DNA of 64,000 nt from Vulcanimicrobiota bacterium (GTDB lineage Bacteria > Vulcanimicrobiota > Vulcanimicrobiia > Eremiobacterales > Eremiobacteraceae), in the NCBI GenBank assembly GCA_963812135.1, contig CAWETU010000001.1, forward strand, positions 2,142,018-2,206,017, written 5' to 3'. Shown piece after piece: positions 4,206-42,600 of the stretch. The notes below the pieces were generated by a model. The model did not search any database, was not told the origin of the DNA, and saw only the letters and a program-made list of their open reading frames with translations. Every line of letters starts with the position of its first letter. Position 1 is the first letter of the stretch. The translations under genes were made by a program, and so were the position numbers.

Positions 4206-4646
4206 ATGGCACTGGCACTTCCCCGATACGAACCCGAGCGGCTCACCGTTGCCCTCATCGCCCACGACGCGCGCAAGGAAGAGATGGCGCAGTGGGCGGC
4301 GTTCAACCGAGACACGCTCGCCAATTGCGAGATTTATGCGACCGCGACGACCGGCAGCTCGGTCGCCGAAAAGCTCGACCTGCCCATCACCATGCTTCTG
4401 TCCGGCCCGTTCGGCGGCGACGCCCAGGTGGGTGCCCTCATCTCCGAGGGACGGATCCACGTGGTCTTCTTCTTCTGGGATCCGCTCACGCCGCAGCCGC
4501 ACGATGTCGACGTCAAGATGCTGCTGCGGCTTGCGGTGCTGCACGACGTCCCGATCGCATGCAACCGCAGCTCGGCCGATCTGCTGATCTCGTCACCGCT
4601 GTTCACGGACATCGGCTACCACTTCCGCACGCCGGCGGTCGAATAG
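4206..4646 (+). CDS. mgsA: methylglyoxal synthase
   Basis: 146 aa with LIAHDARKEEM, ATATTG, SGPFGGDAQVGALISEGRI, FFFWDPLTPQPHDVDVKMLLRLA and CNRSSADLLI, matching the MgsA pattern. Confidence 0.9.
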   Translation: MALALPRYEPERLTVALIAHDARKEEMAQWAAFNRDTLANCEIYATATTGSSVAEKLDLPITMLLSGPFGGDAQVGALISEGRIHVVFFFWDPLTPQPHDVDVKMLLRLAVLHDVPIACNRSSADLLISSPLFTDIGYHFRTPAVE

Positions 4647-4660
4647 ATTCGGCCGCTACA
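4637..4660 (+). repeat. REP-like palindromic element, variant copy (GGTCGAATAGATTCGGCCGCTACA)
   Basis: Matches the 24-nt family consensus with 2 substitutions. It contains the mgsA stop codon (TAG 4644-4646). Confidence 0.75.
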
Positions 4661-9499: not shown

Positions 9500-9503
9500 C
9501 TTC

Positions 9504-9527
9504 GGTCGAATAAATTCGACCGCTACA
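9504..9527 (+). repeat. REP-like palindromic element
   Basis: Exact GGTCGAATAAATTCGACCGCTACA, 5 nt after the TPR gene stop. Confidence 0.9.
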
Positions 9528-9547: not shown

Positions 9548-10006
9548 ATGGATCCGCTTGAGAACTTCAAGTTCCGCGTGATGTGGGATGGGCGTTATGT
9601 GGCCGGCGTGAGCAAGGTGAGCGCGCTGCGGCGCACCACTGAAGTCGTCCAACATCGCGAGGGCGGCGATTTCGGAATCATTCGAGAGCAGCCTGGCCGC
9701 GCCAAGTACGAACCGATCACGTTGGAGCGCGGCATCACGAACGACACCGCATTCGAGCAATGGGCGAACCTCGTGAACAACCCGACCGGCCCCGGCGCCG
9801 CCAACTTCCGAAAGGACATCCTGATCGATCTGTTCGATGAGGCGGGGCGCAAAGTGCTCTCATATAAGGTCTATCGCTGTTGGGTCTCAGAATATCAGGC
9901 CTTGCCCGATCTCGATGCGGACGCGAACGCGGTCGCGATCGAACATATCAAATTGGAGAATGAGGGCTGGGAGCGCGACACACAAGTCGTCTGGCCGGTG
10001 GAATAA
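9548..10006 (+). CDS. phage/eCIS tail-tube-like protein (T4 gp19 / 'conserved phage tail region protein' family), orphan copy
   Basis: 152 aa with AAAGGGG SD. FKFRVMWDG..VSKVSAL..TEVVQHREGG..PGRAKYEPITLERGIT.D..F..W..RKDILIDLFDEAG..CWVSEYQALPDLDA.AN.VAIEHIKLENEG matches the tube-protein pattern. Confidence 0.8.
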   Translation: MDPLENFKFRVMWDGRYVAGVSKVSALRRTTEVVQHREGGDFGIIREQPGRAKYEPITLERGITNDTAFEQWANLVNNPTGPGAANFRKDILIDLFDEAGRKVLSYKVYRCWVSEYQALPDLDADANAVAIEHIKLENEGWERDTQVVWPVE

Positions 10007-10086: not shown

Positions 10087-10794
10087 TTATTGGCGTGCCG
10101 GAGGACCCTGGCGCTGTCCGACGACGCGGCCGATAACCGGCGACGACTCCGTCGCGGGCCCGTAACCCCAGATGCCGTTGAAGCTCTGGCCGTCATCGTT
10201 GAACCAGAACGAGAACCAGCCGGTCTGTGTCTTGCTCGTCCAGGTATAGCGCACTTTGTCGGAGGTCCGGAATTTGCCGTTCAGCGTGAGATTGCTGACT
10301 TGGCAAATCGAGGTCGGACCTGACTGAGTGCAGCTCGTCGGACCTTGGAACAGCGTCGGACCGGTTACGACCGTCATATTCCACGTGCCGGCCGTGGTGA
10401 TCTTGACCGGCGGCAGGATCTTATTGCCAACGAACGAGCCATTTTCTTTTTTGCCGTTGTAGCCCCATGACCCATTAAAACTGTGGCCGTTGGGTGTGAC
10501 GTAGACAGTGGCCCAGCCCGCGCCCGAATTGGGGCCGGTCGCGATCTTCCATGTGGCGTTGAGCTTCGAATCGCTCACAAACGTGCCTGTGAACGATCCG
10601 CCGTTCGCAGCGTTCGTGCCCACGACCCCATTGCCCGATTGGGTCAGTGTTATTGTGGCCGTTGAGCTGCCGTTCTTACCGGTTTGCTCGACAGTCCATT
10701 TACCGGTGAGGTTCGGCGGAGCCGCGAGAGCCGCGGCGGTCGAGATCGCTGCAATAGCAACGACGAGAACGAGGGATAGTGAAAAACGTTTCAC
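10087..10794 (-). CDS. secreted protein with two internally duplicated beta-rich modules
   Basis: Signal peptide MKRFSLSLVLVVAIAAISTAAALA. The pattern G.W......G....T.TQSG..V.G...GW....G.SFNG.WGY occurs twice. Confidence 0.75.
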   Translation of the reverse strand: MKRFSLSLVLVVAIAAISTAAALAAPPNLTGKWTVEQTGKNGSSTATITLTQSGNGVVGTNAANGGSFTGTFVSDSKLNATWKIATGPNSGAGWATVYVTPNGHSFNGSWGYNGKKENGSFVGNKILPPVKITTAGTWNMTVVTGPTLFQGPTSCTQSGPTSICQVSNLTLNGKFRTSDKVRYTWTSKTQTGWFSFWFNDDGQSFNGIWGYGPATESSPVIGRVVGQRQGPPARQ

Positions 10795-11098
10795 TCTTAG
10801 TCTCCTTCAAGTTTTAGAGTTAGGATCGGTCTTTCAGGAAAGCGCCGTGATATACCCGCGCCGGGGAGAGCGCGAACGCTGATGCTACCAGCGATGTACG
10901 CGTAAAGTCGCGCAAACCAACTTGGCTGCTCCTATGTTCTTGCGCAAGGTCCCCAAGCGTACCGATGCAGGGGACGGCCGCATGTATTCGACAAGCCCCG
11001 ACCGAACCGGCGCGACGGTCTTAGGAACGTTCTGATCCTCCGCTTCCGTTTGAATGGGTGGGTGATTGTACCCGTTCTTTTTCGAGGAGAGTATCGCG

Positions 11099-11605
11099 AT
11101 GAAGTCTCTGCCTAGATTGCATTTACTCGTCGCCGCATTGTCCCTTTGCGCGCTTGCGCTGGCTGGTCCGCTTCCCGGAAGCGCGAGCACGACCACGACT
11201 GGAAACGCAGCGGGAAACAACGTGGCGCATCCCCTCGTGGTCCCCCGCCCTTCTAACCTTCGCCAACCGGCCAACAGCGCCGACTGCGTCAGCCACGTCT
11301 ACAACGGCGGCGCAGGGTACTACGAGCACATCGCATATGGCTGCTCGCACCCGACCGCCAATTATATCTACATCGTGTGGGACTACTCCGGCCCCCGGCC
11401 GCACGACGGCTATCACGTCTATCGCACTGACTCCGGACGGCAAGACTACGGCATTCACAACGACGGCACGGTGGCGCAGATCTACTACGCCGGCGGCCGC
11501 GCGTGTTTCGTCGTCACTGCCGTCAACGGCACGACCGAGTCGCCGGACAGCAATCAGTTCTGCATCTACCCTGTGGCCGCGCCGATGCACGTCGTGCCCC
11601 ACTAG
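11099..11605 (+). CDS. secreted hypothetical protein (FN3-like C-terminal module)
   Basis: ATG at 11099 with GGAGAG SD, and signal peptide MKSLPRLHLLVAALSLCALALAG. 'YHVYRTDSG...CFVVTAVNGTTESPDS' is FN3-like. Confidence 0.7.
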   Translation: MKSLPRLHLLVAALSLCALALAGPLPGSASTTTTGNAAGNNVAHPLVVPRPSNLRQPANSADCVSHVYNGGAGYYEHIAYGCSHPTANYIYIVWDYSGPRPHDGYHVYRTDSGRQDYGIHNDGTVAQIYYAGGRACFVVTAVNGTTESPDSNQFCIYPVAAPMHVVPH

Positions 11606-12492
11606 CTGTGGTGCTTGAACTCGTTCTTGTCGAAATACCACGGCGGGATGTCCGCCGGAAAACCAAAATCGTGAAAGGTGTATTCGTAGTGGCCGCTATC
11701 GCCGAACGGGCCGACGTGCACTTCGCCGTCGCCGATCGCGTGCGCGATAAGCCAATACGGCCCGACCTTCTCGAACTCGACGAGCGCGTCGAGCGTCCCA
11801 TTGCCGGGACCCTTCGAACCTGACGCGTGCGCGTGCGCGCGCCAGACGTCGAAAGTCGTCGTGTCCACCCACAGGTCTTTGAACGGATGCGCGCGCTCGT
11901 CGCGCAGCGCGTGCATCGCGAGATGGTAGACGGGCTTGCCGTTGTAATCCTCGATGCCGACCAGCTTGACCGAATAGTAACGGTCGCCGACCACCGGCTG
12001 GACCGTCAGCACGGGCGGCGGCGTTCGGCCTGAGGGCAGCGGTCCGGGCGTGCTCGTCGGCGGCGGGGTCAGCGCTGGATCCGGCGTCGCATATAAGAGG
12101 ATGTCGTTGTCGGGAGCCGAGGGGAACGGGTAGCCGAAATACGTCTCGGCGCGCCCGTAGCGGTCCTTGCTGATGTTCTGCATGAGGCCTTTGCCGTCGC
12201 CGCGATACCAGACCCGGTAGTCGTACTCTTCGCGCTGCCAGTGATGGTCGAAGAGCTCGTGCATCTGGTACGTGATGAAGTACGGGTGTTGGTGGGCACG
12301 CGTCGCCCTCTCGGCGTTGATCATGATCTGATCGGCGCTGAGCTCCTCGACCTCGACGGGCGTCGGCCGAACGGTCGGAGTGGGAGTGGGAGTGGGCGTC
12401 GGCCTTGGCGTTGGAGTCGGCGCGCCGACCGCGACGGCGGCAGCAGCCAAGGTCAGCGCGGCCAAACCCGCGGCAGCGATGAAGTTCCTCAC
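11602..12492 (-). CDS. secreted hypothetical protein with N-terminal Pro/Thr linker
   Basis: 296 aa with a signal peptide followed by [16 protein letters not shown]. Its stop overlaps the convergent gene stop (CTAG). Confidence 0.75.
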   Translation of the reverse strand: MRNFIAAAGLAALTLAAAAVAVGAPTPTPRPTPTPTPTPTVRPTPVEVEELSADQIMINAERATRAHQHPYFITYQMHELFDHHWQREEYDYRVWYRGDGKGLMQNISKDRYGRAETYFGYPFPSAPDNDILLYATPDPALTPPPTSTPGPLPSGRTPPPVLTVQPVVGDRYYSVKLVGIEDYNGKPVYHLAMHALRDERAHPFKDLWVDTTTFDVWRAHAHASGSKGPGNGTLDALVEFEKVGPYWLIAHAIGDGEVHVGPFGDSGHYEYTFHDFGFPADIPPWYFDKNEFKHHS

Positions 12493-12530
12493 GATGATAT
12501 GACGTCTTTCGACGCAAATGATACGAGCGC

Positions 12531-15500
12531 ATGCAGCGATTCGAACCGACCGAGCAACAACGGGCCGTCATCGACCACCGGGGCGGCCACGCACTCGTCT
12601 TCGCCGGCCCAGGCACCGGCAAGACCGAGACGCTTGCTCGGCGGTTCGCTTCGTTGGTGGTGGACGACGGCGTCGACCCGAGCGCGATCCTTGTTTTGAC
12701 CTTTTCTCGGCGCGCCGCGGAGCAGATGCTCGAGCGCGTGGTCCAGCGCTTGCGCGAGCGCACCAGCAAAGAGCTGGCGGTGAGCGAACTCTTCGTGCGC
12801 ACCTTTCATAGCTTTTGCGCCCGGCTGCTCGACGGCGACGGTCCGCGCTTTCGCGAGCGCAATCTGCTCAGCCCGATCAAGGAGCGGCTTCTTTGGAAAC
12901 GCGTGGCGGCGCGCGTGCCGCTGCGCTCGTTCGATCCCGAGGTTCGTACAAGCCCGGCGTTCGCCGCCGACGCGCTGAACCTGATCGCGCAGCTCAAAGG
13001 GCAGGGGCTGAGCCCGTCGGACGTCGAGGACGCGGCCAAGCGCGACGGCCGCTTGCACGACATCGCTGCGCTCTACCGCGAGCTTGACGCCGAGCGCAGG
13101 CGATTGCGCTTGTCAGATTTCCGCGATCTCGTCAAGGACGCGCTCGACGCGCTGACGCTGCCCGACAGCCCCGCGTCACGCTGGCTGCACGCGCGCAGCG
13201 GTTTTGCGCACATCCTGGTCGACGAGTTCCAGGATAGCGACGCGCTGCAACTGCGTTTGCTGGAGATCTTGGCCGGACCTCACCGCAACGCAGCGCATCC
13301 GGTGCCGGAGATCTGTTTCGTCGGTGATTTCAACCAATCGATCTATCGCTTTCGCGGCGCCACGCCGAAGAACATCGAGATCGTGCGCGAGACCTTCGCC
13401 TGCCGCGAGCTCACGCTCGATCTCAACCGGCGTTCGGCGCAAGCGATTTTGGACGTCGCCAATGCGACGCCGCAGCTCAAGCCCGAATCGCTGACGCAGG
13501 CGGAGAATCAGTCATTGGAAGGCAGCGTGCAGCTGCGGCGCGCGACCGATCCCGACAGCGAGATCGCGCTCGTCTGCGACTCGATCGCGGCGCGCGTCCG
13601 GGCGGGCACGCCGCCCGGAGAGATCGCCGTGCTGCTGCGCGTGAGCGAGCCCTATCAGAGTTTGATCGTCGGCCAGCTCGATGCGCGCGGTATTCCCGTC
13701 GCGGCGCGCCCGTCGGCCGGTTTTCTCGAGGATCCGGTGATCGCCGCAGTGCTCGACACGATCCGGCTCACCGCAGACCTCGAGGACTTCGACCGCTGGA
13801 CGCGCGTGCTCACCAATCCGCTGATCGGCTTTGGCCAGCTTTCGGTCAGTCTCGCGTTCGATGCGGCGCGCCGCTTCGGGATGCGCAACGCGTTTGTCGC
13901 GCTACGCGACAATCCGCCGTCCGGGCGGCTTGCATTCGAGGATTTCTTGCGGCACTGGCGCGCGGTCGAGGCAGAAGCGCGTTCGGAAGAAAGCGACATC
14001 GCGTCGCTGATCGCGACGATCGCACGCGAATTCGACCTGTTGCGGCCGGTGCGCTCTGGCGATATCCCGCCCGGCTGGGACCCGCGCTCTTCACCGGCTC
14101 GCCTTGGTTCGCTGGTGGATGCCGCGCGCGACCTGCAGTCGATGGCATACGTGTTGGGCGACGGGCGCATCAGGCCCGCGGAATTTGTCGACAGCATTGA
14201 GGAGGTCGCAGGGCTGCTTGGGGATCCGACGCAGATCCCGCCACTGGATAGCGGCGGCGTCCGCGTGATGTCGATCCATGCCGCCAAAGGGCTTGAGTTC
14301 GATGAGGTGGTCATCCCGCAGGCGATCGACGGCGTGCTTCCCCAGCGCGAACGCGGCCACGCATTGCTGTCGAACGCCTCGGTGCGCGCGCTGCACGCCA
14401 AGGCGGCGACCTTTGTGGCGACGCCCGAAGAGGCATATCAAGAGGAGTGCTCGCTGTGGTACGTCGCGCTCACTCGCGCGCGCCGCCACGTGCTGGTCAC
14501 AGCGGCGGAAGCGGACGCCGACGATATCGAGCTGCCGCTCTCGGTGTTCGCGCATGCGATCAAGGACGCTGCAGCGGCGCCCGCGCTTCGCTCAGGCGCG
14601 GGACTCGAGCTGCGCTCGGGTGCCGGTCGAATCAATTCGACCGCTGCATTTGTGCCCGTGCAGGAGCGACGACCGCTCACCCATGTCATCGATCACCTGT
14701 CGCCCACCGGCGTGGGAACCTTCCTCGCGTGCCCCCGGCGCTTCTTCTATAAGGAAGTATTGCGCTTGACTCGAAGACCGCGATGACGAAGGAACGCTGC
14801 TCGGACGATTGTTGCACCGTGCGCTCGCGGCATTCCATACCGAGGAGCGCGTGTTCGGCCCCCGGCCCGATCTGGACGCTTGTCGCGCGCGTTGGAGCGA
14901 GTCGCTCTCCACGTTGGCCGAGGCCGCCGCCGGCACGGTGGCGACCGAAGCGGGTTTCGCGCCGGATTCGAGCTTCATGCGCTACCAGCTCGCGCTCGCG
15001 CGCCAATATCTGGCGGACTACGCGGCGCACCTCTCACGTGAGTCTATCGCCGCGCCGTTTGAGGTGCTCGCGTGCGAACAGCGATTGGAAGCGGAGATCG
15101 GCGGCGTGCGCTTCACCGGTCAAGCCGACCGCATCGATCGGCTCGCGGACGGCACGCTGGCGATCCGCGACTACAAGAGCGGCAGACGCTATGGAAAGCT
15201 TGCGGTCGCAGTCCGCAAGGCGTTGGAGCGCATCGACAACGGCGAGCAGCTCGCGGGCGATGCGCCCGAGGGGCTCAACCTTCAGCTCTTGCTGTATATG
15301 CCGGGCGCGCAGGCGCTCTATGGGGCGCCCGTTTCGCGCGTCGAGTTCATCTATTTCCGCGGCGAGGGCGAGGGGGACGGATTGCTCGCCGATACGGTCC
15401 AGATCGTCGCGGATGGTTCGGCGCGCGCGTCGGATAACACGCTCACCGCGGCGGAGGCTCACCGCGCGCAGACCGAGATCGCGGCTTCAGTCGCCGCGGC

Positions 15501-15609
15501 GTGCGCGGACGGCAGCCTGGACGCGTTCGTCACCGCCGTCGACATCAAGACGTGCCGCTTCTGCGGTTTCGTGCGGGCGTGCCCCGGCCCGTTGGCGGTC
15601 GCTCAATGA
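12531..15609 (+). CDS. AddB/AdnA-like helicase-nuclease subunit (UvrD-type motor + PD-(D/E)XK nuclease with Cys cluster). Frame broken by an apparent +1 shift near 14769 (ORF pieces 12531..14786 and 14770..15609)
   Basis: Motor motifs GPGTGKT, ILVDEFQDSD and WYVALTRARRH. Nuclease motifs FLACPRRFFYKEVL, ADRIDRL..LAIRDYKSG and CRFCGFVRAC. 'KEVLRL' continues as 'LEDRDDEGTLLGRLLHRAL' in the next frame. Confidence 0.8.
14625..14648 (+). repeat. REP-like element embedded in-frame in the helicase-nuclease linker (GGTCGAATCAATTCGACCGCTGCA)
   Basis: Stem intact, with loop and tail substituted. Translated as GRINSTAA within ORF 12531..14786. Confidence 0.8.
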
Positions 15610-17901
15610 ATCCGATGTTCGATTTCTCATCGAATCCGATTTCGACCGAACAGCAGCTCGTGCTCGAGCACCCTATCGACAAGCCGGCGCTCGTCGACGC
15701 AGGTGCGGGCACCGGCAAAACGCACACGATCGTCAATCGCGTGGCGTATCTCCATGAGAGCGGGCTGTGCCGCGCCAAAGACATCTTGTTGCTCACGTTC
15801 GCGCGCAAGGCCGCCGCCGAATTGCGCAGGCGGACGTTGGCGCGCCTTGGCCCGACGATCGAGCCCCCGCATTGCTCGACCTTCCACGGCTTCGCGTCAA
15901 GCCTGTTGCTGGAGCATGCCTACGATCTCGGCGTGTCGCCGGACAGCACCGTTATCGAAGACGTCGACGCGCGCCTCGAATTCCGTGCTGCGATGGACGA
16001 CGTCATCCATAACCCGCACGCGGATGCCCACGCGTTGCCGCTGCGCTCGGCTCGGCGCGACGATCTGCGCGCCGGTCTGTTCGCGATCGCACAAGAGCTG
16101 AAGGAACAGGACATCGAGATCGACGCATTCGAGCGACAAGCGCTCGCGGCCGCCTCGTCGATCGAATCGATACCGTATCGCGAGATTCACAAGCGCACCG
16201 AGGGCGGCAGCGTCTCGTCCGTCACGCAAGCGCACACGACCGACGAGGGGCTGCGCCGGGAAGTAATGGAGGCGCAAGCACGCGTGCGCGCCGCGGCCGC
16301 GATCTTCCGCCGTTATCACGAGCGCTTAGCGCGCCGTTTTGCGCTCACGTACGCAGACCTCTTGCGGCTCGCGCGCCGGGGCATCGAAGAGGATCCGAAA
16401 CTGGCAGCGGAGCTGCGCGGCCGATTCCGGCATTGCATCGTCGATGAGTTCCAGGACACCAACGACGCGCAGTGGCGGTTCTTGCAGACGCTCTTCGGCG
16501 CCGGACTCGAGCGCGTCACGGTGGTCGGCGATCCGCGCCAAAGCATCTTCGGCTTCATCGGCGCGACGCCGGCGAACATCGAGCGCTTCGGTTCGACCGC
16601 CGGCGCCAAGCGATACGCCCTGTCTGAAAACCGGCGCTCGCGCCAAGAGATCCTCGATCTGGCGCACGCGATCATCCGGCAGCAATCGGACGACGCCAAA
16701 CCGTTGGCGGCGAGCAGAGGAGCGTCGGGCTCCCCCAACGTCCATGTGTCGAGCAGATGGGCGACCCCGCAGCTGCCCCGTCCGCGCGCGGAGCAGAATC
16801 GCCACGCGCAGGCGCGCGCAGTGGCGGCGCGCATCAAGACGCTGCTGTCCGGCGGGATGCCGCCGCAACATATCGCGATCCTCACGCGCAACAAGACGCA
16901 GATCCAAGCGTTCACCGCGGCGCTGGTCGCCCACGACATCCCGTTCCGGCTGCTCGGCGGCGCCGGATTCTACGAGACCGCCGAGGTGGTCGACGCACTG
17001 GCGTGGCTGATGCTGCTCTCAAACCCGCTCGACGGCCAGGCCGTGGCGCGCTTGTGCGCATCCCCAGCATGCGGCTTGTCCGACGCGGCGATGACGACGC
17101 TGGCCGCGGGGCTCGACCGGGATGACTCGGCGTTCGCGCGGCGCGCGCTCGTCGAACCGATACCCGAGACTCTGGATCCCGACAGCCGGCGGCGCCTCGA
17201 GCGTTTGCGAGCAAATCGTCGATGCGATCGAACCGTACGCCTCGGCGTCGCTGCGCATCGCGTTTCCGGAGATGCTCGCGCGCACCGGGCTGTTCGAGAC
17301 CTACGCGCGCAGCGGCGACACGCAGGCGACGGCGAACCTGCTCAAACTTGGGAAGCTGGCGACGGCCTTCGTGGAGCGCAACCGGGAAGCGCAAGCCCGC
17401 GATTTCGTGCACTATATCGAAGAGCTCAAGCGCATCGACTTCGACGACCGCGAAGCGGATCCGCCGGCGAGCGATGCGGTCACCGTCATGACGATCCATG
17501 CAGCCAAAGGATTGGAATGGCCGGTCGTCTTCGTCATCGACGTCTGGCCACGCGTCTTCCAGCCGCCGATGATCTGGCGCGATCCGCTCACCGGCGCGCT
17601 GCTGTGCATGGAAGGCGCGGACGGCAACAAGCCGTTTCATGCCGTGGCGGCCAAACTGCGGCCTGATCACGAAGGCATCGCGCCGCACGAGACCGAGCTT
17701 GAGGAAAGCGAGCGCGACGCGGAAGAGCGCAGGTTGTTCTATGTCGCGTTGACCCGCGCGCGCGACGAGCTCTACATTTTGGGCGGCAGCCAGTACAGCG
17801 CGAAAAATCCCGGCGGCAGGCCGCATGAGTTCATCGCCGAGATCGAGTCATGGATGACTATCCGGGGCTGGCCGATCGACGAGCCGGTACCGGTCGGTTG
17901 A
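15606..17901 (+). CDS. AddA/AdnB-like UvrD-type helicase module. Frame broken by an apparent +1 shift near 17208 (ORF pieces 15606..~17208 and ~17209..17901)
   Basis: ATGA overlap with the upstream gene. Motifs GAGTGKTHTI, CIVDEFQDTN, VMTIHAAKGLEWPVVFV and LFYVALTRARDEL. 'RRRLERL' continues as 'EQIVDAIEPYASA' in the next frame. Confidence 0.8.
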
Positions 17902-17908
17902 AAAAGTC

Positions 17909-18010
17909 GGTCGAATAAATTCGACCGCTACAGACAGCGCGGAGGACGGTCGAATAAATTCGACCGCTACAGACGGCGCGGAGCACGGTCGAATACATTC
18001 GACCGCTACA
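17909..18010 (+). repeat. three tandem REP-like copies with a 39-bp period
   Basis: Copies at 17909-17932, 17948-17971 and 17987-18010, separated by near-identical 15-nt spacers (GACAGCGCGGAGGAC and GACGGCGCGGAGCAC). Confidence 0.9.
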
Positions 18011-18022
18011 TCCAAGCCGGCG

Positions 18023-18790
18023 TTGCCGCCGCTCTCCTTCTCCACCTTGCGCGCGTTCGAGCGCTGTCCGCGCAGCATGACCTACGCCGCGATCCTGCGC
18101 CTGCCGGACTTGCGCCGCCGCAAACCGGAAGCATCCGACGACGCGCTCGCCGAGGCGATCTCGGCCGACGGCGAGGACGCCGATGCGCTGCTGGCATCCG
18201 ATCGCGGCCGGCTCGTGCACCGCGCGCTCGAACGTTGGGCGCTGTCACAGATCGACGGCGCGCCGAGCGATTCGGCTGCTGTCTACATCGCCGCGGCGGC
18301 GACCGAGTTCGCATTGCGTCTGAAGGGGAACGAATTGAAGGAATCGATCGAGGACGTGCGCGCCGCGATCGACGGGCTGCGCGACTGGCGGGTTGTGCGG
18401 GCCGAAGCGCCGTTCGTGATGCAATTTGGCGACGCGGTCGTCACCGGTTTCATCGATCTCATCGCGCTCGATGACGCGGGCCTTCCCGTGATCCTCGACT
18501 ACAAGACAGGAACAACACCCGTTTCCGAATACGCCTTGCAGCTGGGAATCTATCGCGAGGCCGCGATGCGCGCTTATGGCGTGCGCGATCCTCGCTGTGC
18601 GATCGGCAGGTTCGAGGGCGGCCGTTTCACGATCGAGATGATCGATGCGCCGGCCGAGCCAGACGTACGAGCGCGTATCGGCGCGGTCGCGGCGGGCCTG
18701 AGCGCTACCGACATTGAACCGCGGCCCGGACGATGGTGCTACACGTGCACGTATCGAGCGGCACCCTGCGATGCGTACCCGCACTCGTGA
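18023..18790 (+). CDS. PD-(D/E)XK (RecB/Cas4-like) nuclease module with C-terminal Cys cluster. Its reading frame is open upstream to 17858, through all three REP copies
   Basis: FSTLRAFERCPRSM, VVTGFIDLIALDD..PVILDYKTG, QLGIY and RWCYTCTYRAAPC. This is the domain normally fused to the C-terminus of AddA/AdnB helicases. Confidence 0.8.
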   Translation: MPPLSFSTLRAFERCPRSMTYAAILRLPDLRRRKPEASDDALAEAISADGEDADALLASDRGRLVHRALERWALSQIDGAPSDSAAVYIAAAATEFALRLKGNELKESIEDVRAAIDGLRDWRVVRAEAPFVMQFGDAVVTGFIDLIALDDAGLPVILDYKTGTTPVSEYALQLGIYREAAMRAYGVRDPRCAIGRFEGGRFTIEMIDAPAEPDVRARIGAVAAGLSATDIEPRPGRWCYTCTYRAAPCDAYPHS

Positions 18791-18793
18791 TCA

Positions 18794-20239
18794 TCATCGC
18801 CGCTTTCGCGAGCTCGATCCGCGCGGTCCCTCGGTCCCTTTAAGCGAGGCGAGCGGCTCGAGTTCGTACTCGATCTCCGCCAGGCCCGCGTTGACGACGC
18901 AATCGACCACCTCGCGCGCCGGCTTATAGCATGGGCCGGATTCGTCGATCGGCACGCGGTTGTCAGCGTTGACCAAGATTCCGGCCGCGCGATAGCGATC
19001 CTCGATCTCGCGACGATCGAGGCATTGTATCGCGCGCGAGCGTGACAGCCGGCGGCCGGCGCCGTGATTGACGGAGAAGCCGCTGTTCTTGGCTGCCGGC
19101 AACGGCCGTAGGATGAAGCTGGAATCGAAATTGCTGCCCGGGATCAGCACGGGGTGGCCGGTCTGCTCCCACATCGTGCCCTTGAGCGCTGGATGCCCTG
19201 CCGGAAACGCGCGTGTCGCGCCTTTGCGATGCACCCATACCTGGCCGAATTCGGGGTGCTCTTCGAGCTGCACGAGATTGTGGCTGATCTCGTAGATCAA
19301 CTCGAGCGGCTCGCCGAACGTCTCTTCGAACGCCGCGCTGAGCTGTTCGTAGATGATGAGCCGATTGATGATCGCGAAGTTGCCGCCCGCTGAGACGGCG
19401 TTGAGGTATTGCCCGTGGTGGCGCGAGTCGGGCGTGAAGTGACCGAGGTCGAGCTGTGTGTTGCGGTCCGGCCTTTCGGCCTGCGCAAGATCGAAGTAGT
19501 TCGTCGCGAGACCATGGCCGAAGCCGCGGCTGCCGGTGTGCACCTGGACGAACAGCGTATCTGTCTGGATGCAGCGCTGCAGCTCGATGAAGTGATTGCC
19601 GCCGCCGAGGCTGCCCAGCTGTTTCACGCCGCGCTCGGGCCGTCCGCGACCGCCCCATGGGATCTGCCAATCCTCATCGACCGGCAAGCGATCGCGCTCG
19701 GTGCGGCTGCGGTCGACGTTCGAGCGATGATCCGCCATGTAGCATTCCGCGCCGCCGCGCACTAGGCGTTCGAATTCGTTCTCGCTCAGGCCGGCCAGCG
19801 CGCGGCTCTTGCCGCCAGCGCCCATCTCGATGCGCTCGATCACCGCGCGGTTGAACTGCAGGCGCTTGTCCGGCGTCGCCTCGCTCACCGGCACGTTCGA
19901 TCTTGCGGAGATCATGCCGCAGCCGATATCGTAGCCGACCGGACCCATCGCGACGGCGCCGTCTTTGGCATCGGTGAGGATGACGCAACCGACCGGCACG
20001 CCGTAGCCTGAGTGGACGTCGGGGGTGATGACGACGAGCTTCACGCCCGGGAATGCGGTCGCGTTGAGCACTTGCTGGTAGACTGTTTCGTCGATGTCCG
20101 CCAGCAGCGCGTCGCTCAGGAAGAAACGCACCTCCGTGCCGCGTGTCGCGTCGGTGCGCAACGAATAGAACCCGCGCTCGTCGCGGCGCAGGTCGTCCAT
20201 CCACGCCGGCCGTGCGGCGTTGCTCACTTCTTCGGACAT
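18794..20239 (-). CDS. rtcB: RNA-splicing ligase RtcB
   Basis: 481 aa with ITPDVHSGYG, GYDIGCGM, GSLGGGNHFIE, HTGSRGFGH and NHGAGR motifs. Confidence 0.9.
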   Translation of the reverse strand: MSEEVSNAARPAWMDDLRRDERGFYSLRTDATRGTEVRFFLSDALLADIDETVYQQVLNATAFPGVKLVVITPDVHSGYGVPVGCVILTDAKDGAVAMGPVGYDIGCGMISARSNVPVSEATPDKRLQFNRAVIERIEMGAGGKSRALAGLSENEFERLVRGGAECYMADHRSNVDRSRTERDRLPVDEDWQIPWGGRGRPERGVKQLGSLGGGNHFIELQRCIQTDTLFVQVHTGSRGFGHGLATNYFDLAQAERPDRNTQLDLGHFTPDSRHHGQYLNAVSAGGNFAIINRLIIYEQLSAAFEETFGEPLELIYEISHNLVQLEEHPEFGQVWVHRKGATRAFPAGHPALKGTMWEQTGHPVLIPGSNFDSSFILRPLPAAKNSGFSVNHGAGRRLSRSRAIQCLDRREIEDRYRAAGILVNADNRVPIDESGPCYKPAREVVDCVVNAGLAEIEYELEPLASLKGTEGPRGSSSRKRR

Positions 20240-20739
20240 AGGCCAGGCGGGATGGTGAGCGTGAGCGTCAGTTTGTTGTTGTCAAAGGTGTATTCATCGA
20301 ACCATGGTTTCGCGTTCACGGAGACGAGGAATTCGTGTTTCCCGCTGACGCCGGGCCGGCCGGGCAGATCGATGCGCACGGCTTGGGTCTGGCCGACGCC
20401 GATCGTGCCGAGCGTCGCGCCAGCGGTCCACCAGATGTCGGTGGTATCGGTGACGGTGACTGCTTTGTCCTCGGGGATCGGCTGGCTGTTGATGCTGCCG
20501 ATGTTGGTCACCCGCAGCAGAAACGAGATCAGCGGCTCGTCAGGCGTGCAGCGCGAAGCGATGACGTAGCCGGGACCGTCCGGCGGGTTTGGCCCGACGG
20601 TGAGGTCTGGTTGAGCACCAAGCGTCGCGCCCGAAGGGAAGCCGGCGGCGAGCGCGGTCGAGGCGGTTGCGAGGAGAGTCAACGCCAGCGCGATGACGGT
20701 CGAATAAATTCGACCGCTACATTTGCTAAGAGTTGGCAA
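20224..20739 (-). CDS. small secreted CARDB-like beta-sandwich protein. The proposed TTG start is at 20739
   Basis: Signal-like N-terminus MPTLSKCSGRIYSTVIALALTLLATASTALAAG, then 'LLRVTNIGS...VTVTD...TQAVRIDLPG..HEFLVSVN' (CARDB-like). The start is uncertain because the frame stays open upstream, antisense to the neighbouring gene. Confidence 0.5.
   Translation of the reverse strand: MPTLSKCSGRIYSTVIALALTLLATASTALAAGFPSGATLGAQPDLTVGPNPPDGPGYVIASRCTPDEPLISFLLRVTNIGSINSQPIPEDKAVTVTDTTDIWWTAGATLGTIGVGQTQAVRIDLPGRPGVSGKHEFLVSVNAKPWFDEYTFDNNKLTLTLTIPPGLCPKK
20698..20721 (+). repeat. REP-like palindromic element
   Basis: Exact GGTCGAATAAATTCGACCGCTACA. It lies 4 nt from the stop of 20726..21739 and inside the putative signal-peptide coding region of 20224..20739. 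Confidence 0.9.
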
Positions 20740-21739
20740 GGGCCACGCCCGCGCCGAGCGCCTGCAGTTTAGCGTACGCGACATCGCGGCGCATCGGTGC
20801 CATCCCGCAGTTGGTGGACGCGATGATGCGATCGTCCGGCAGATAACCGCGTGCGATGTTGAGCGTGGCAAGGACGTCTTCCGGCGTCTCGACATAATCC
20901 GTCGCGACATCGATGACCCCGACGGCCGCATCCTTACCGACAATAGCGCCGAGGACATGCGGCGGCACGTGCGAACCCGCAAGCTCGATCGAGATCTCAT
21001 CGATGCGCGTCCTCGAAAGCAGCGGCAACACCCGTTCGTACTGGTCCCACGTCGCGCCGAGCGACTGTTTCCACTCGATATTGGCCGCGATACCATAGCC
21101 GTAGCAGACGTGGACGGCGGTGCGGCAAGCCGCGTCGCGCACGCAGGCATCGATCGCCTCCATGCCCCATTGCTCGGCTTCGTCCAGATACGCGTTGAGC
21201 GCCGGCTCGTCGAGTTGCACCGTGTACACCCCGACGGCTTCGAGGCTGGCGATCTCCTCGCGGATCAGATCCGCAAATGCGAGCGCCAGCGAACGCCGGT
21301 CGCCGTAGTGCTCGTCGTACACCGTGTCGACGATCGTCATCGGTCCGGGCAGCGTCACTTTGAGCCGCCGCTTGGTGTGGCTGCGCGCGAACGTCGCTTC
21401 GTCCAGGTGCACGGAACCTTTGCGGCGCACCGGCCCGGTGATCGTGGGCACGTCCGCCTTGTAGCGGTCGGCGCGAATGCCGCGACGCGTCATCTTCGAG
21501 AAATCGACCCCATCGATGTGCTCCAAAAAACCATGCACGAAATGCCGGCGCGACTGCTCGCCGTCGGTGACATAGGTGAGGTTCGCCCGGTCTTGCTCGA
21601 AGAGCGCGATGCGCGTGGCGTCGCGCTTTGCGTCGGCCAGTTCCGCGCCGTCGAGTTGCCACTGCGGCCACAGCTTTTCGGGTTCGGCTAGCCACACCGG
21701 CTTGGGCAAGCTGCCGGCGATGGTCGAGCGGATGTCCAC
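20726..21739 (-). CDS. cobalamin-independent methionine synthase (MetE C-terminal domain)-like methyltransferase
   Basis: 337 aa with GSLPKP, TDGEQSR.HFV, VQLDEPAL, HVCYGY and STNCGMAP patterns of the short MetE-like family. Confidence 0.8.
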   Translation of the reverse strand: MDIRSTIAGSLPKPVWLAEPEKLWPQWQLDGAELADAKRDATRIALFEQDRANLTYVTDGEQSRRHFVHGFLEHIDGVDFSKMTRRGIRADRYKADVPTITGPVRRKGSVHLDEATFARSHTKRRLKVTLPGPMTIVDTVYDEHYGDRRSLALAFADLIREEIASLEAVGVYTVQLDEPALNAYLDEAEQWGMEAIDACVRDAACRTAVHVCYGYGIAANIEWKQSLGATWDQYERVLPLLSRTRIDEISIELAGSHVPPHVLGAIVGKDAAVGVIDVATDYVETPEDVLATLNIARGYLPDDRIIASTNCGMAPMRRDVAYAKLQALGAGVALANS

Positions 21740-21743
21740 GACG

Positions 21744-22199
21744 CTAGACGCGCGTTTTGCCGGCGGTCGCCGCGTTGCGCTCGAGGCGCGCGACGTCGTC
21801 GGGCGTCGCGGGTTGTGCGCGATCGCGCTGCGCGTCGACGATGCAGAGAAAGCCGAACGGCGCGTCGCCGGTGTTGACGAATTGATGCAACGTCATCGGA
21901 CCGACGTAGATATGATCGAGATTCTCGATGGGGTGCACGGCGTCGCCGACGATCGCGTAACCTTCGCCGCGGATCACCGTCACCGAATGGATGTGTTCGT
22001 GGCGTTCCAGGCGGGTGAAGCCGCCGGGCTCCACTTCGAAATAGCGCAGCTGGAACTGGGAGGGCTCGCCGTTCGCGCCCGAGATGATGTGGCGCGTGAC
22101 GCCGCGGAAACCCTCGCCGTCGCTCTCGCCGGTCGCCTTGTAACCCGCGGCCTGGACGCCTTCCCACGAGAATTCACTGGAATGGAATTTGTGTTTCAT
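21744..22199 (-). CDS. cupin-domain protein
   Basis: ATG at 22199 with ATGA overlap to the upstream ADH. Cupin motif FEVEPGGFTRLERHEHIHSVTVIRGEG. Confidence 0.8.
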   Translation of the reverse strand: MKHKFHSSEFSWEGVQAAGYKATGESDGEGFRGVTRHIISGANGEPSQFQLRYFEVEPGGFTRLERHEHIHSVTVIRGEGYAIVGDAVHPIENLDHIYVGPMTLHQFVNTGDAPFGFLCIVDAQRDRAQPATPDDVARLERNAATAGKTRV

Positions 22200-23281
22200 G
22201 CGCGCCCCGGATAGACGATGACTTTGAGCGCGTCCGTGCCGGCGGCCACGAGACGATATGCTTGCGCGATATCGGCGAGACCAAAACGGTGGGTGACCAG
22301 CGAGCGCAGCGGCAGACCGTCGGCGAGGAGCTCGAGCGCTTCGCGCGTGTCGTTCGGCCCCGCGGAGTAGCTCGTGATGACGCTGATGTCTTTGAAATAG
22401 AAATCGTGGACGGGCAGCGGCCAGTATTCGGTCGCTTGCGTGGGCGTGAACAGCACGATCTTGCCGCCCGGTGCGACGCACAACGCGGCTGCGCGCATGG
22501 CTTCGACCGAACCAGGCCCGACGATCACGACGTCTGCGCCCTCGCCGTCGGTGGCCGCCAGCACCTGTTCGTGCAGCGGCGAATGCTCGATGTCGAAGGC
22601 GTGATGGACGCCGTGCTCTCTGGCCGCGTCGAGGCGCGCGCGAACCCGATCCGCGCCCATGATGAGCTCGGCGCCGCGAAAGCGGGCGAGCGCGACGTGC
22701 AACATACCCATGACGCCAAGACCGATCACCAGCACGCGGTCGCCGGCGCGCAGGCCGCTACGGCGGATCGACTTCACGACGGTGGCCAGCGGCTCGACCA
22801 TGGTGGCGAGGTCGTCGTCGAGCGAGTCGGGGATGCGCAAGACATCGGCGCGCACGCTTTCCGCCGGCACGATCGCGTATTGCGCCATGCCGCCAGGGCG
22901 CAGTCTGCTGCTGCGCCAGGTCTCGCATTGGACATAGTCTTTGCGCTTGCAGCGCCGGCAGGTCATGCACGGCGCGTGATGGTGGACGAAGACGCGCTCG
23001 CCCGCGGCAAAGGGGATAACGCCGTTCCCGTGATTGGTCGATCCGTTCGCGGATGGAGCCGCGCCTTCGCCACACGCCTCGATGACCGCCACGGGTTCGT
23101 GGCCGAGCACGAAGGGGGCCTTACGATCGTTGTACCAGCCCATCACTTCGCCGGGGCAGATGCCGCAGGCGGTGACGCGCACCAACAGTTCGCCGTGTTC
23201 GAGGGGGCTGAGATCGACGTCGCGCACGTCTATGTCGCCGCCCTTTTGATAGACGGCCGCTCGGGTGGTTGTGGGCAACAT
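22196..23281 (-). CDS. zinc-dependent medium-chain alcohol/polyol dehydrogenase
   Basis: ATG at 23281 with CGICPGE and GHEPVAVI motifs. Structural-Zn cysteines CMTCRRCKRKDYVQC and Rossmann motif VIGLGVMG. Confidence 0.85.
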   Translation of the reverse strand: MLPTTTRAAVYQKGGDIDVRDVDLSPLEHGELLVRVTACGICPGEVMGWYNDRKAPFVLGHEPVAVIEACGEGAAPSANGSTNHGNGVIPFAAGERVFVHHHAPCMTCRRCKRKDYVQCETWRSSRLRPGGMAQYAIVPAESVRADVLRIPDSLDDDLATMVEPLATVVKSIRRSGLRAGDRVLVIGLGVMGMLHVALARFRGAELIMGADRVRARLDAAREHGVHHAFDIEHSPLHEQVLAATDGEGADVVIVGPGSVEAMRAAALCVAPGGKIVLFTPTQATEYWPLPVHDFYFKDISVITSYSAGPNDTREALELLADGLPLRSLVTHRFGLADIAQAYRLVAAGTDALKVIVYPGRA

Positions 23282-23353
23282 GGAAGCTCTTAGGTTCGCG
23301 CTCGCGCACGCATCCCCCCGCGCTGCAGCAGCACAGGGGGACACGGTTAAGCC

Positions 23354-23989
23354 TTAAGCGATACCCGACTTGAGCGCGTACACCGCGGCCTGCGTCCGCG
23401 CGGTGACGTTGATCTTGCTGAAGATCCGGCTGATGTGGTTCTTCACGGTTTTTTCGCTCAGATACAGCTTGCCGGAGATCTGCCGATTGGACAGGCCCAG
23501 CGCGATCAGCCTGATGACTTCCGTTTCTCGCTCGGACAGCTCGGATGGGTCGTTGCGCAGCCGGCGATTGTTAAGCCGCCGCAACATGTTGCCCGCAAGA
23601 CTCGGATCGACGTACACGTTGCCGTCGAAGATCGAAATCAGCGCACGCGCGAGGTCCTCCATCGCGATGTCCTTGACGACGTAGCCCTCGAGGCCGAACA
23701 GAAGGCTGCGCGTGAGCAGGTCTTGCTGGGGCTGCATCGAGAGAATGCAGATCTTGGTGCCCGGACATGCTTCGCGCATGTACTTGATGGCCTCGACCGG
23801 GTCGCCTTTGTGAAAATCGACGTCGAAAAGTATGACGTCTGGCCGGCTCGCGGCGGCGGTCTCGACATCGCTCATGCCATTGCATCCAGCAACCGTCACA
23901 AAGCGATCGTCGGCCATCAACAACTGACAAATGGCTTTGCGGAACAACACCTGTGGCTCGATGACCGCTATTCGCACTCGCTCACTCAT
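23354..23989 (-). CDS. NarL/FixJ-family response regulator (receiver + LuxR HTH)
   Basis: Receiver motifs DVILFDVDF, ILSM and VVKD. HTH segment LSERETEVIRLIALGLSNRQISGKLYLSEKTVKNHISRIF. Confidence 0.85.
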   Translation of the reverse strand: MSERVRIAVIEPQVLFRKAICQLLMADDRFVTVAGCNGMSDVETAAASRPDVILFDVDFHKGDPVEAIKYMREACPGTKICILSMQPQQDLLTRSLLFGLEGYVVKDIAMEDLARALISIFDGNVYVDPSLAGNMLRRLNNRRLRNDPSELSERETEVIRLIALGLSNRQISGKLYLSEKTVKNHISRIFSKINVTARTQAAVYALKSGIA

Positions 23990-37564: not shown

Positions 37565-38802
37565 CGCGCCTTGGCATCGTGACGTCGGGTTTTCCCTACA
37601 CGTCCAAAGAGACGTTCCTCGCGCCCGAGCTGCACGAGCTGTCGTCAGCGGCCGACGTCTTCGTGTATCCGGTGACGCCGAAAACCGGTCGAATGAATTC
37701 GACCGCTACAAGTACGCCCGTGTTTATGCCGCTGATCGGCGCACGCGTCATCGCTGAGGCCGCGCGCGAGTGCGTCGAACGCCCTGCGCGCGTCGCGCGC
37801 GCGTTCCGAGCCGTCGCGCTCGCGGGTTCGTCGTGGAGCGTGCGCTTCAAGAACGCCGCGGTTTTCGCCAAAGCGCTGGCGGTGGCACGCGACATGCGCC
37901 GGCGGCGAATCCAACACGTGCACGCCTACTGGGCGTCGACGCCCGCCACGGTCGCTTATGCGATCGCGATGCTCAACGACATCCCGTGGAGCTTCACCGC
38001 GCATCGCTGGGATATCTACGAGAACAACCTGCTCGCCGACAAGGTGCGGCACGCCGTCTTCGTCAGAGCGATCTCGGAGCGCGCCCGCGCGACCGTGCTC
38101 GAACGCGTGGATCGCGCGTACGCGCACAAAGTGACCGCGCTGCATCTCGGCGTCGCGCGAGCCTGCGCAACAGACGGCGTCGAATGCGTTCGCCCGTTCA
38201 CCATGCTGTGCGCCGCCAACCTCGAGCCGGTCAAGGGACACACGACGCTCATCGAAGCGCTGCGCTTGCTCGCGATGCGCGGCGTCCAAGTGCGCTGCGT
38301 GCTCGCCGGCGACGGTTCGTTGCGTGGCGATCTCATGGCCGCGGTGCGCGCCGCGGGGCTCTCCGACCGCGTGACGTTCGCCGGCGCAGTGCCGCACGAC
38401 GCGCTGCTGCGCGATATCGCGAGCGGCACCTACGATGCAGCCGTGCTCGCGAGCATCGAAACGCGCGACGGGCTGCACGAAGGCATCCCCGCGTTTCTCA
38501 CGGAGGCGATGGCCGCCGGCGTGCCTTGCATCGCCACGCGAACCGGCAGCATCGGCGAGCTCATCGACGCTCGCTGCGGCGTGCTCGTCGAGCAGCGCGA
38601 TCCGCAAGCGCTGGCCGATGCGATCGAGAAACTCATGAACGACGGCGAGACGCGCCGCGCGCTTGGCCGCGCAGCGCGGGCACGCGTCGCGCGCGATTTC
38701 GCCGCCGAAACGCTCGCGCGGCGGCTACTGGCTCAGATCCAAGTGCAAGACAGCGCGGCGATGCGCCGCGAGATCGCGGAGCTCACCTCGGCACGATCGT
38801 AG
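37561..38802 (+). CDS. GT4-family glycosyltransferase (WcaL-like) carrying an in-frame REP-like insert
   Basis: ATGA overlap, with VKGHTTLIEAL and EGIPAFLTEAMAAGVPCIATRTGSIGELI. The REP at 37687-37710 is read as GRMNSTAT. Confidence 0.85.
   Translation: MTRLGIVTSGFPYTSKETFLAPELHELSSAADVFVYPVTPKTGRMNSTATSTPVFMPLIGARVIAEAARECVERPARVARAFRAVALAGSSWSVRFKNAAVFAKALAVARDMRRRRIQHVHAYWASTPATVAYAIAMLNDIPWSFTAHRWDIYENNLLADKVRHAVFVRAISERARATVLERVDRAYAHKVTALHLGVARACATDGVECVRPFTMLCAANLEPVKGHTTLIEALRLLAMRGVQVRCVLAGDGSLRGDLMAAVRAAGLSDRVTFAGAVPHDALLRDIASGTYDAAVLASIETRDGLHEGIPAFLTEAMAAGVPCIATRTGSIGELIDARCGVLVEQRDPQALADAIEKLMNDGETRRALGRAARARVARDFAAETLARRLLAQIQVQDSAAMRREIAELTSARS
37687..37710 (+). repeat. REP-like element embedded in-frame in a GT4 gene (GGTCGAATGAATTCGACCGCTACA)
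   Basis: Stem and tail are intact and the loop is TGAA instead of TAAA. Confidence 0.85.
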
Positions 38803-41235: not shown

Positions 41236-42600
41236 TTAATGCCCAGGCACGCGCTGCACGGCAGGCAAGGTCAAGACCTCGAAGTCGGTGAGGTGCAGGT
41301 TGGCAAGCGCGCTCAGGTCGCCCCCGTTCCAGTGGTTCAGCCCGTCTTGCGACTCGATGCCGTACAGCGCGTTGGAGCTGCCCGTATCCGCCAAGAACAT
41401 GCCGTAGGTCTTGAGCGCGGTCGTGATCGCTTTGGCTTGCGGTCCGAACGACGAGTCGTTGAACGACGCTTTGAGCCGCAAATGCGCCCCATACGGCAGC
41501 TCGTAACTCGGGTTGCCGCCGCTAAACAAGAGCCCATCGGTGTCGCTGGCAGGCCGCACGAAGCTCCACTGCGCGAACGCGTGGGCCGTGCCGCCCCAGT
41601 TGAGGGCGTGCTTGATGACGCCGCTTTGCAGCTCTTCCGACTTCACCGCGCCGGCGAACAACGACAGACCCGAAGCCATGCTGCTCGGCCACCCGGCTGG
41701 CAGCGAATAAAACGGCTGCGTCAGATCCCACGACCAGCCGCTATACGCCGACAAGATGCCGGTCCAGCTCGTGCCGTATGCCTCGAACACGCGGCACGTC
41801 GGCGGGCTCACCACGAACACCATCGCGTGCTTGTCAGAGAGCTGCTCGATCTTATACGGAGGCATCCACGGATACGGCGGATTGGCGTCCCACTCGTTTT
41901 GATGATACGACACCGTCGCGTGCACCGTGTACGTCGGCGTCAGCGCGGTCGCCAGGTTCGCGTACTCGTAGCCGGTGCTCAGGTAGAATCCGCTCGAGTC
42001 AACTGCGGCCGAGGAAGCGATAAAGTTCGCTGAGTTCGGATCCACCGCGAAGCCGGCGACCGGCTGATTGTAATAATCGCCGGCGGTGAACACCGTGCAG
42101 CCCTGATAGGTGGCCACGTTGCCCGGCGGGGGCGTGGCTGTCGGAGCAGGCGTGGGTGTCGCCGTCGGTTTCGGCGTCGGCGTCGGCGTGGGCGTGGGCG
42201 TCGCCGTCGGTTTGGGAGTGGGCGTCGGCGTGGGTGTAGGCGTCGCCGATGGTTTCGGAGTCGGCGTCGCGGTCGGCGCCGGTGTTGCCGTCGGAGCAGG
42301 CGTGGCGGTCGGCGCGGGCGTCGCGGTCGGCACGGGCGTTGCGGTCGGCGCGGGGGTCGCAGTCGGCTTCGGGGTCGGCGTCGGCGCTGGGGTCGCGGTG
42401 CCTTCCGGCGTGGGTGTCGGGTGGATGTTCTGCGGCGGCGCCTGGGCGGGAGACGGCATGACCGATGAACCCCCGCCGCAGCCCGCGATCAACAGCGCTG
42501 CGGTTAGGACCAATCCCGCGAGAATCCCAAGCTTTTTAATGACCGTCTCCTGTGCCCGTGCGGAAGCGCAGACCCGGTCATATAGCTTTCGGTTGCACAC
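41236..42600 (-). CDS. lipoprotein of unknown function, paralog B (long Pro/Thr-rich linker + same conserved domain)
   Basis: Lipobox LLIAGC and a linker of about 95 aa of [16 protein letters not shown]-type repeats. The same C-terminal domain as 40026..41084. The start is uncertain (GTG 42600 or further downstream). Confidence 0.8.
42125..42425 (-). repeat. coding low-complexity tandem repeats (Pro/Thr/Ala-rich linker)
   Basis: Iterated GGCGTCGGC/GGCGTGGGC units on the + strand, which read (T/A)P(T/A)P.. on the - strand. Confidence 0.7.

Follow-up and report, generated by a model that had tools for sequence, protein, structure and literature searches.

Repetitive extragenic palindromes (REPs) of the GTAG type are linked to RAYT/TnpA_REP (REP-associated tyrosine) transposases (PMC3733652; PMC2817692, Nunvar et al. 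2010), and they are found within genes as well. Di Nocera et al. 2013 (PMC3733652) located GTAG and CGTC REPs inside open reading frames (ORFs), with a preference for genes of replication and repair (uvrA/B, UvrD/Rep helicases, recBCD and dnaE2); REP termini often give stop codons, and the intragenic elements were considered perhaps neutral, placed in flexible linkers or loops. The recB case described there, from Xanthomonas oryzae, falls at residues 84-126, not in a tether (PMC3733652). The locus considered here carries a tandem array of three such elements at 17908-18010 of a 64-kb stretch of Vulcanimicrobiota DNA (assembly GCA_963812135.1, contig CAWETU010000001.1, positions 2,142,018 to 2,206,017; 'the window' below is this whole stretch of 64,000 nucleotides). 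The array lies between the motor and the nuclease of an AdnB-like protein, and it appears to be translated as most of the tether that joins them.

Palindromes within coding sequence are known from another setting, the Rickettsia palindromic elements (RPEs), which are tolerated since they are located in surface or unstructured parts of proteins. To our knowledge, no tandem array of RPEs that makes up an interdomain tether has been reported. These elements, attributed to the work of Ogata et al. in 2000, are reportedly selfish repeats that lie in frame in coding genes and are translated.

A helicase-nuclease gene pair with a REP array

Between 12.5 and 18.8 kb, the Pfam domains UvrD-helicase and UvrD_C followed by PDDEXK_1 occur twice, spread over five ORF fragments. 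The fragments are best grouped as two genes:

12531..15609, plus strand: AdnA-like subunit (UvrD-type motor and PD-(D/E)XK nuclease), with Pfam UvrD-helicase/UvrD_C and PDDEXK_1 over two frames; broken by an extra base at 14771
15606..18790, plus strand: AdnB-like subunit, very probably a single gene; broken by extra bases at 17211 and 17895/17896, and 1060 amino acids (aa) long once these are deleted

The ATG of the AdnB-like gene (15606) overlaps the stop of the AdnA-like gene as ATGA. When 14771, 17211 and 17895/17896 are deleted, stop-free AdnA-like and AdnB-like ORFs of 1025 and 1060 aa result, both with UvrD-helicase, UvrD_C and PDDEXK_1. Judged by sequence, 12531-15609 and 15606-18790 are an AdnAB-type pair of helicase-nuclease subunits, with a predicted activity in resection. 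The best long PDB sequence match of the second subunit is mycobacterial AdnB (6ppu_B; residues 12-749, E 8e-49), with an identity of only ~25%, and the AlphaFold model of its relative P0001 matches AddA, AdnB and RecB chains at probability 1.00 (Foldseek). The PDB match of the first subunit is AdnB, not AdnA, and is weak.

Direct repeat copies of CGGTCGAATAAATTCGACCGCTACA... begin at 17908, 17947 and 17986, with spacings of 39 and 39 nt, and Tandem Repeats Finder (TRF) reports a tandem repeat at 17908-18010 (period 39, score 185). UvrD_C is directly upstream of the array and PDDEXK_1 directly downstream (Pfam); a single further copy in the first subunit is likewise flanked.

17908..17932, plus strand: REP copy 1, stem CGGTCGAA / TTCGACCG, loop TAAA, tail CTACA; read GRINSTAT
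17947..17971, plus strand: REP copy 2; read GRINSTAT
17986..18010, plus strand: REP copy 3, loop TACA; read GRIHSTAT

Every copy has an 8-bp stem and a 4-nt loop followed by CTACA, and the copies stand head to tail; the 39-nt unit, 13 codons long, consists of a GTAG-type REP hairpin (25 nt) and a spacer (14 nt). Folding of the array gives three hairpins (z = -3.4 as RNA, -3.7 as DNA). On the minus strand at 17899-17927, REP copy 1 followed by TTTTT scores as terminator-like; the candidate was set aside, as the T5 run rests on a window-private G>A that is absent in the relatives.

The original prediction, made from the window alone, had the helicase ORF stopping at 17899-17901 and the nuclease frame open back to 17858 and running through all three copies with the period kept. 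All of this is seen in the sequence, with TRF and translation in agreement: the helicase frame terminates at TGA 17899-17901, and the third frame is free of stops between 17855-17857 and 18788-18790 (open 17858-18790), reading ...VEKVGRINSTATDSAEDGRINSTATDGAEHGRIHSTATSKPALPPLSFSTL... Because the period of 39 nt is 13 codons and the GRINSTAT frame holds no stop, a gene can carry the array without losing its frame. As had been said of them, the same element frame is used by two further copies, at 14625 (GRINSTAA, subunit 1) and 37687 (GRMNSTAT, in a glycosyltransferase).

A probable single gene interrupted by private insertions

Two relatives are close enough for comparison base by base. L001 is the JGI contig that carries P0001 (protein 90% identical), aligned with the window over 4.5 kb; L002 is part of a 2.77-Mb ENA contig and is 94% identical. 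Plots of third-position GC content (GC3) by frame place three +1 frame changes near 14.77, 17.2 and 17.9 kb. Of the window-private indels relative to L001, just three alter the reading frame, each of them a 1-nt insertion (14771, 17211 and 17896), and L002 is without all three. The remaining gaps between window and L001 cancel locally or are multiples of 3, including a 21-nt gap where L001 lacks the REP of subunit 1. Two of the insertions fall in the AdnB-like gene:

17211, plus strand: private 1-nt insertion, the first frame break of the AdnB-like gene; a gap in L001 and L002
17895..17896, plus strand: private insertion of one base (C or G, as its placement is ambiguous), giving rise to TGA 17899-17901; absent from L001 and L002

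Across 17211, the proteins P0001 and P0018 read ERLR(R/Q)IVDAIEPY uninterrupted. At the second junction the window has GTCGGTTGA, L001 has GTC-GTTGAG and L002 has GT-GGTTGAG; in codons, GTC GGT TGA in the window, GTC GTT GAG in L001 and GTG GTT GAG in L002. The relatives translate the junction as PVPVVEK(A/V)GRI(H/N)STAT, and P0001 reads on through three REP copies of its own (GRIHSTAT..GRLKSTAT..DRAKSTAT) as ...IDEPVPVVEKAGRIHSTATDDGDGRLKSTATDRSEGDRAKSTATAKPALPPLSFSS... Two in-frame copies are present in P0002, P0003 and L003 (62-69% identical). L003 is also the one locus, a distant one, that was matched when a genome collection was scanned with the nuclease ORF.

A conceptual full-length second subunit, used as query, retrieved over 80 full-length orthologues from Candidatus Eremiobacterota and relatives. 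Each is a single protein of 1044-1106 aa with helicase and nuclease Pfam domains, so that the comparison of orthologues that had been proposed at the outset, one fused ORF or two, gave fused ORFs throughout. L005 has an intact pair of subunits (1047 and 1054 aa) with a 4-nt overlap.

Two readings had been offered for the break at the array. One supposes that REP expansion split a fused gene into functional helicase and nuclease genes, the latter starting from a TTG:

18023..18025, plus strand: TTG, the mechanical ORF start of the 'nuclease gene'; an internal Leu codon in ALPPLSFS, not a start

The stop at 17899, with a TTG-initiated ORF of 255 aa that spans the whole PDDEXK_1 domain, is what speaks for such a split. 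However, the same three-copy array lies in L001 inside an intact ORF of 1051 aa, and therefore the array alone does not split the gene; the stop is due to one private base upstream of the array; the TTG, although the only start-type codon in the nuclease frame after 17858, is the conserved Leu of a motif kept within the fused orthologues; and none of the 86 aligned orthologues is split at this place. Shine-Dalgarno evidence at the TTG says little, as genes of the window are generally without such motifs. A split by REP expansion is highly unlikely. A different way of keeping the gene whole would be programmed +1 ribosomal frameshifting, or transcriptional slippage, restoring full-length proteins at each break. 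All four shifts found in the window (a fourth is described below) do have the same sign, and a run of five A (17901-17905) follows the TGA; but the four sites have no slippery motif in common and are not conserved, relatives simply being without the extra base, and the A5 run is downstream of the stop, where relatives have GAGAAAG. Re-pairing from GGU to GUU is not known among +1 sites, such as those of the RF2/prfB type. Recoding is scarcely credible here. The second of the readings first offered, a single gene thrown out of frame by a +1 error somewhere in 17858-17908, with the REPs as a repetitive linker, is borne out by the relatives, which lack the extra base and translate the array: on this comparison, 15606-18790 is very probably one gene, with TGA 17899 due to a single extra base at 17895/17896.

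Assembly error or operon decay

The extra bases may be faults of the assembly or real mutations. The window comes from a 2.37-Mb single contig, and a fourth +1 insertion is found well away from adnAB, at 37112, where it splits a GT4 glycosyltransferase (36460-37564) into Glyco_transf_4 in one frame and Glycos_transf_1 in the next; this base is absent from L007, a contig of a short-read metagenome-assembled genome (MAG; GCA_035940335.1). Near the three adnAB insertions (no more than 12 nt away) the window has five private substitutions, all five of them G>A, against a background share of 26%; the substitution adjoining 37112, in a comparison of two sequences, is again G>A when set against L007. 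An insertion with a private G>A nearby looks like a systematic signature of consensus error. Further candidates for frame breaks did not hold: a fifth, at 9408 in a tetratricopeptide-repeat (TPR) gene, is a deletion in L002, the window reading being sensible; in ORF 10087..10794 it is L002 that has the break, the window copy being intact; and the frame transitions at 31.6, 48.2 and 49.5 kb (plus strand) and 58.6 kb (minus strand) are ordinary gene boundaries.

L002 offers a parallel. Its adnAB genes hold at least 12 private single-base indels, with others in rtcB and in that same 235-aa ORF (10087..10794). The ratio of nonsynonymous to synonymous change (dN/dS) on the L002 branch, from branch-wise substitution counts in a three-sequence alignment of window, L002 and L001, is 0.07 for subunit 1 and 0.04 for subunit 2; because purifying selection is so strong, the indels are not evolutionary. 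On the window branch the values are 0.10 and 0.07. Identity between window and L002 falls to 91% over 9495-18783, which includes adnAB, against ~96% in the flanks (one flank being 18789-26757), and the private indels of L002 cluster in the 91% stretch and the adjacent rtcB. These cases show that long single contigs of this kind, assembled from metagenomes, do contain consensus indels, and that these gather in the stretch where divergence is greater.

Several observations weigh against consensus error. None of the four insertions is in a homopolymer, where long-read errors are most frequent. The frameshifts are unevenly spread: adnAB, with 6.3 kb of the 64 (~10% of the window), has three of the four, and ~0.4 would be expected there if they were uniform (P about 0.004, our own estimate); such clustering would also fit a real and recent decay of the operon. 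A second assembly of the same strain was not found by look-ups or by a scan of a metagenome collection, in which a degenerate pattern spanning the 17896 junction had zero matches, although it did match L001 and L002 locally.

One might thus suppose that three real and very recent insertions mark an adnAB operon on its way out, with the helicase part ending at 17901 and the nuclease part not made. Besides the clustering, this account can point to the 259-aa fragment P0122, which is present in the deposited annotation too, and to a dN/dS on the window branch (0.07-0.10) slightly, not significantly, above that of the L002 branch (0.04-0.07). The window-branch values are nonetheless strongly purifying, with zero in-frame stops or larger deletions; an unrelated gene, at 37112, shows this pairing of an insertion with G>A as well; over the same region L002 has many indels which, given its dN/dS, are not real; and three independent hits without a raised dN would need an unusually high ratio of indels to substitutions. 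Loss of adnAB is unlikely. The sequence comparisons favour consensus error in a long-read metagenome assembly, in all probability the source of the extra bases at 14771, 17211, 17895/17896 and 37112; and the intact ORFs, indels in multiples of three and selection in the relatives lead us to infer that the array is translated in frame.

The proposed REP-encoded tether

In the AlphaFold model of P0001 (mean predicted local distance difference test score, pLDDT, 89.6; built on 86 orthologues), pLDDT falls below 50 over one long segment only, residues 760-793; the REPs encode residues 760-792. In this model, then, the REP-encoded residues coincide with a predicted disordered tether between motor and nuclease. 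Among 78 closer orthologues the interval from W-x-x-D-E-P to P-L-S-F-S is hypervariable, 47-72 aa long with no conserved sequence. At 58 aa the tether of the window is typical; therefore the REP units form most of the tether rather than lengthening it. Indels inside the array, relative to L001 and L002, are multiples of 3. The conceptual tether peptides of the window are INSTATDSAEDGR, INSTATDGAEHGR and IHSTATSKPALPPLSFSTLR.

In the mechanism proposed, tandem triplication of a 39-nt REP unit would encode most of the tether between the UvrD-type motor and the PD-(D/E)XK nuclease, the stop-free G-R-I-N-S-T-A-T frame giving a polar, disordered segment of about 34 residues. Such a tether is presumably neutral or tolerated rather than functional in itself.

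The REP family

On the minus strand the unit reads GTAG and then the hairpin, so that the label of GTAG-type REP, used from the start on the strength of the sequence, is justified. On the plus strand CTAC directly follows the stem in 19 of 20 copies from the window, L001 and L002; most copies in the L003 genome have CTCC instead. Shuffles lead one to expect 0.04 occurrences of the 18-mer core in the window, which has 10; the element is found at 29 places across the window and L001-L003. Stem cells are paired in 96.9% of cases over 28 copies (window and three related loci), with compensatory double changes at two stem pairs, one of them in copy 2 of the L001 array, CGGTCGAC-TGAA-GTCGACCG.

Outside the array, the window has these copies:

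14624..14648, plus strand: REP copy in the AdnA-like tether, read GRINSTAA; decayed in L002, absent from L001 (21 nt shorter there)
37686..37710, plus strand: REP copy in a glycosyltransferase gene (about 37588-38802), read GRMNSTAT
4636..4660, plus strand: REP copy at the 3' end of an MGS-like ORF (4206..4646); the loop provides the stop codon
5785..5809, plus strand: intergenic REP copy, core match
9503..9527, plus strand: intergenic REP copy between the stop of the TPR gene (9499) and a gp19-like gene, core match
20697..20721, plus strand: intergenic REP copy between the minus-strand rtcB and Meth_synt_2 genes, core match

A copy at 9996-10015 gives, from its loop, the stop codon of the phage-T4-gp19-like tail-tube ORF (9548..10006); stop codons from REP loops, TAA or TAG, are thus found in two ORFs. 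In all, five window copies are in ORFs (the three of the array, 14624 and 37686), two at ORF ends and three intergenic, a small sample chosen for its intragenic array. The 37686 copy sits ~33 codons into the second glycosyltransferase gene. L007, 89% identical at the nucleotide level, keeps it in frame at about 990-1015 as GRRHSTAT, where the window has GRMNSTAT; stems are unchanged and the loop is altered.

All 28 aligned copies of the window and L001-L003 share one orientation, whichever strand the adjacent genes use, which suggests a bias tied to the replication strand rather than to transcription. No RAYT/Y1_Tnp gene was seen among ORFs scanned near REPs or in the gene tables of L002, L005 and L006 (~150 kb accessible). 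Beside REP copies in the interval from the TPR gene to the gp19-like gene, L002 has ~1.5 kb extra with a Fic/DUF4172 gene (L002 2392-3887, at window position 9499); the window is without this insert.

Other hairpin families in the same tethers

The original prediction had the element at the equivalent interdomain position of both paralogous subunits. This stands for the window and L002, which carry the GRINSTAA REP in the AdnA-like tether, and fails for L001, whose AdnA-like tether has no such REP and two hairpins of a CCCGAGC family. A relic of this second family is found in the window:

14604..14620, plus strand: hairpin relic CTCGAGC-TGC-GCTCGGG, read LELRSG, in the tether of the AdnA-like subunit; second palindromic family, with a perfect hairpin in L001

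At the equivalent position the perfect hairpin of L001 is CACCCGAGCTGCGCTCGGGTG. The AdnB tether of L004 has two perfect copies of CCCCGAGC-TGC-GCTCGGGG, read PELRSGH, and that of L006 has CCCGAGCT-GA-AGCTCGGG. In L006, directly after the adnB stop (6149-6271), there is an array, of 37-nt period, of a GTAG-tailed palindrome (CCCGAGCTNAAGCTCGGG plus TACTAC); the same element is in the adnB tether. In the L005 tether 36 nt around GGACC-TAAA-GGTCC are duplicated in tandem, and a related copy is intergenic. The same tethers thus harbour three or more hairpin families: the GRINSTAT, CCCGAGC..GCTCGGG and GGACC-TAAA-GGTCC types. Tether DNA (2.5 kb) has 15 perfect hairpins of at least 8 bp and the remainder of the genes (38 kb) has 8, a density ~29-fold higher in the tethers.

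This enrichment may reflect tolerance by a disordered tether, or real targeting. Between window and L001, stems diverge by ~10% and loops and spacers by ~35%, with a compensatory pair in copy 2 of L001 (our own count). A stronger proposal, which we regard as unlikely, is that both tethers are a preferred and repeatedly used landing site for the active REP family of each Eremiobacterota lineage, and that the stems, instead of being passively tolerated, are actively preserved through RAYT-driven conversion or through selection on DNA or RNA. If true, there would be a functional or mechanistic link between the REP/RAYT system and the machinery for double-strand-break resection. Such a link might lie in a translational pause between domains, or in an interplay with an enzyme that handles single-stranded DNA, on which REPs are thought to move.

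Other features of the window

The gp19-type tail-tube gene at 9548-10006 (L002 3940-4398; Pfam E 1.8e-42) is isolated, lying between the TPR gene and the secreted-looking 235-aa ORF; further tail genes were not seen near it. Two ORFs contain tandem repeats of high GC content: one set, at 42149-42428 with periods of 12-54 nt, lies in the minus-strand ORF 41236..42600, and the other, a PT-rich repeat at 12374-12422, in ORF 11602..12492; both probably encode low-complexity protein segments. From about 25.5 to 56 kb runs a long same-strand cluster of polysaccharide-biosynthesis type, with several GT4 glycosyltransferases, hexapeptide transferases, a DegT aminotransferase and a polysaccharide deacetylase, and Poly_export/SLBB by synteny with L002. 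No Rfam families or tRNAs were found anywhere in the 64-kb window.

Comparison with known systems

Corrected in this way, what is annotated as a helicase, a nuclease and split AdnA-like pieces becomes two full-length AdnAB-type subunits, with the frameshifts flagged as probable assembly errors. From the uncorrected annotation, the genome would appear to be without an intact end-resection enzyme. In common with AdnAB, AddAB and RecB, the subunits have adjacent, overlapping genes, an N-terminal UvrD-type motor and a C-terminal PD-(D/E)XK nuclease; they differ in a tether that would be built from mobile-element sequence.

RPEs provide one precedent. As with RPEs, palindromes lie in ORFs (P0001, P0002, P0003 and L007), the frame is kept and the part of the protein concerned is predicted to be non-globular. 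RPEs, however, are of other families, RPE-1 being longer (about 100-150 bp), and belong to an obligate intracellular alphaproteobacterium.

The nearer precedent is the GTAG-type REP. The elements here share with it a 20-nt hairpin, GTAG at one minus-strand end, many dispersed copies, head-to-tail clusters, stop-supplying copies at the 3' ends of ORFs and copies wholly inside ORFs. Head-head dimers predominate in most described REP families, whereas all copies here run one way, and, unlike GTAG-type REPs with a cognate RAYT, these have no RAYT gene seen in the accessible sequence. The setting also differs from those described, with the phylum Eremiobacterota, a host protein of AdnAB type, a tandem array that makes up most of a motor-nuclease tether, REPs in the tethers of both paralogous subunits, and a tether whose REP family changes from lineage to lineage.

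GTAG REPs within repair genes have been described before, then; the novelty lies in the phylum, in the host protein and in a tandem array as an interdomain tether in both paralogous subunits. The locus extends the observation that intragenic REPs gather in DNA-repair genes, and adds, from a poorly known uncultured phylum, a clear candidate for mobile palindromic DNA that is read into protein as a linker. With different REP families recurring in one tether, it is a concrete system in which the question of tolerance versus targeting can be asked.

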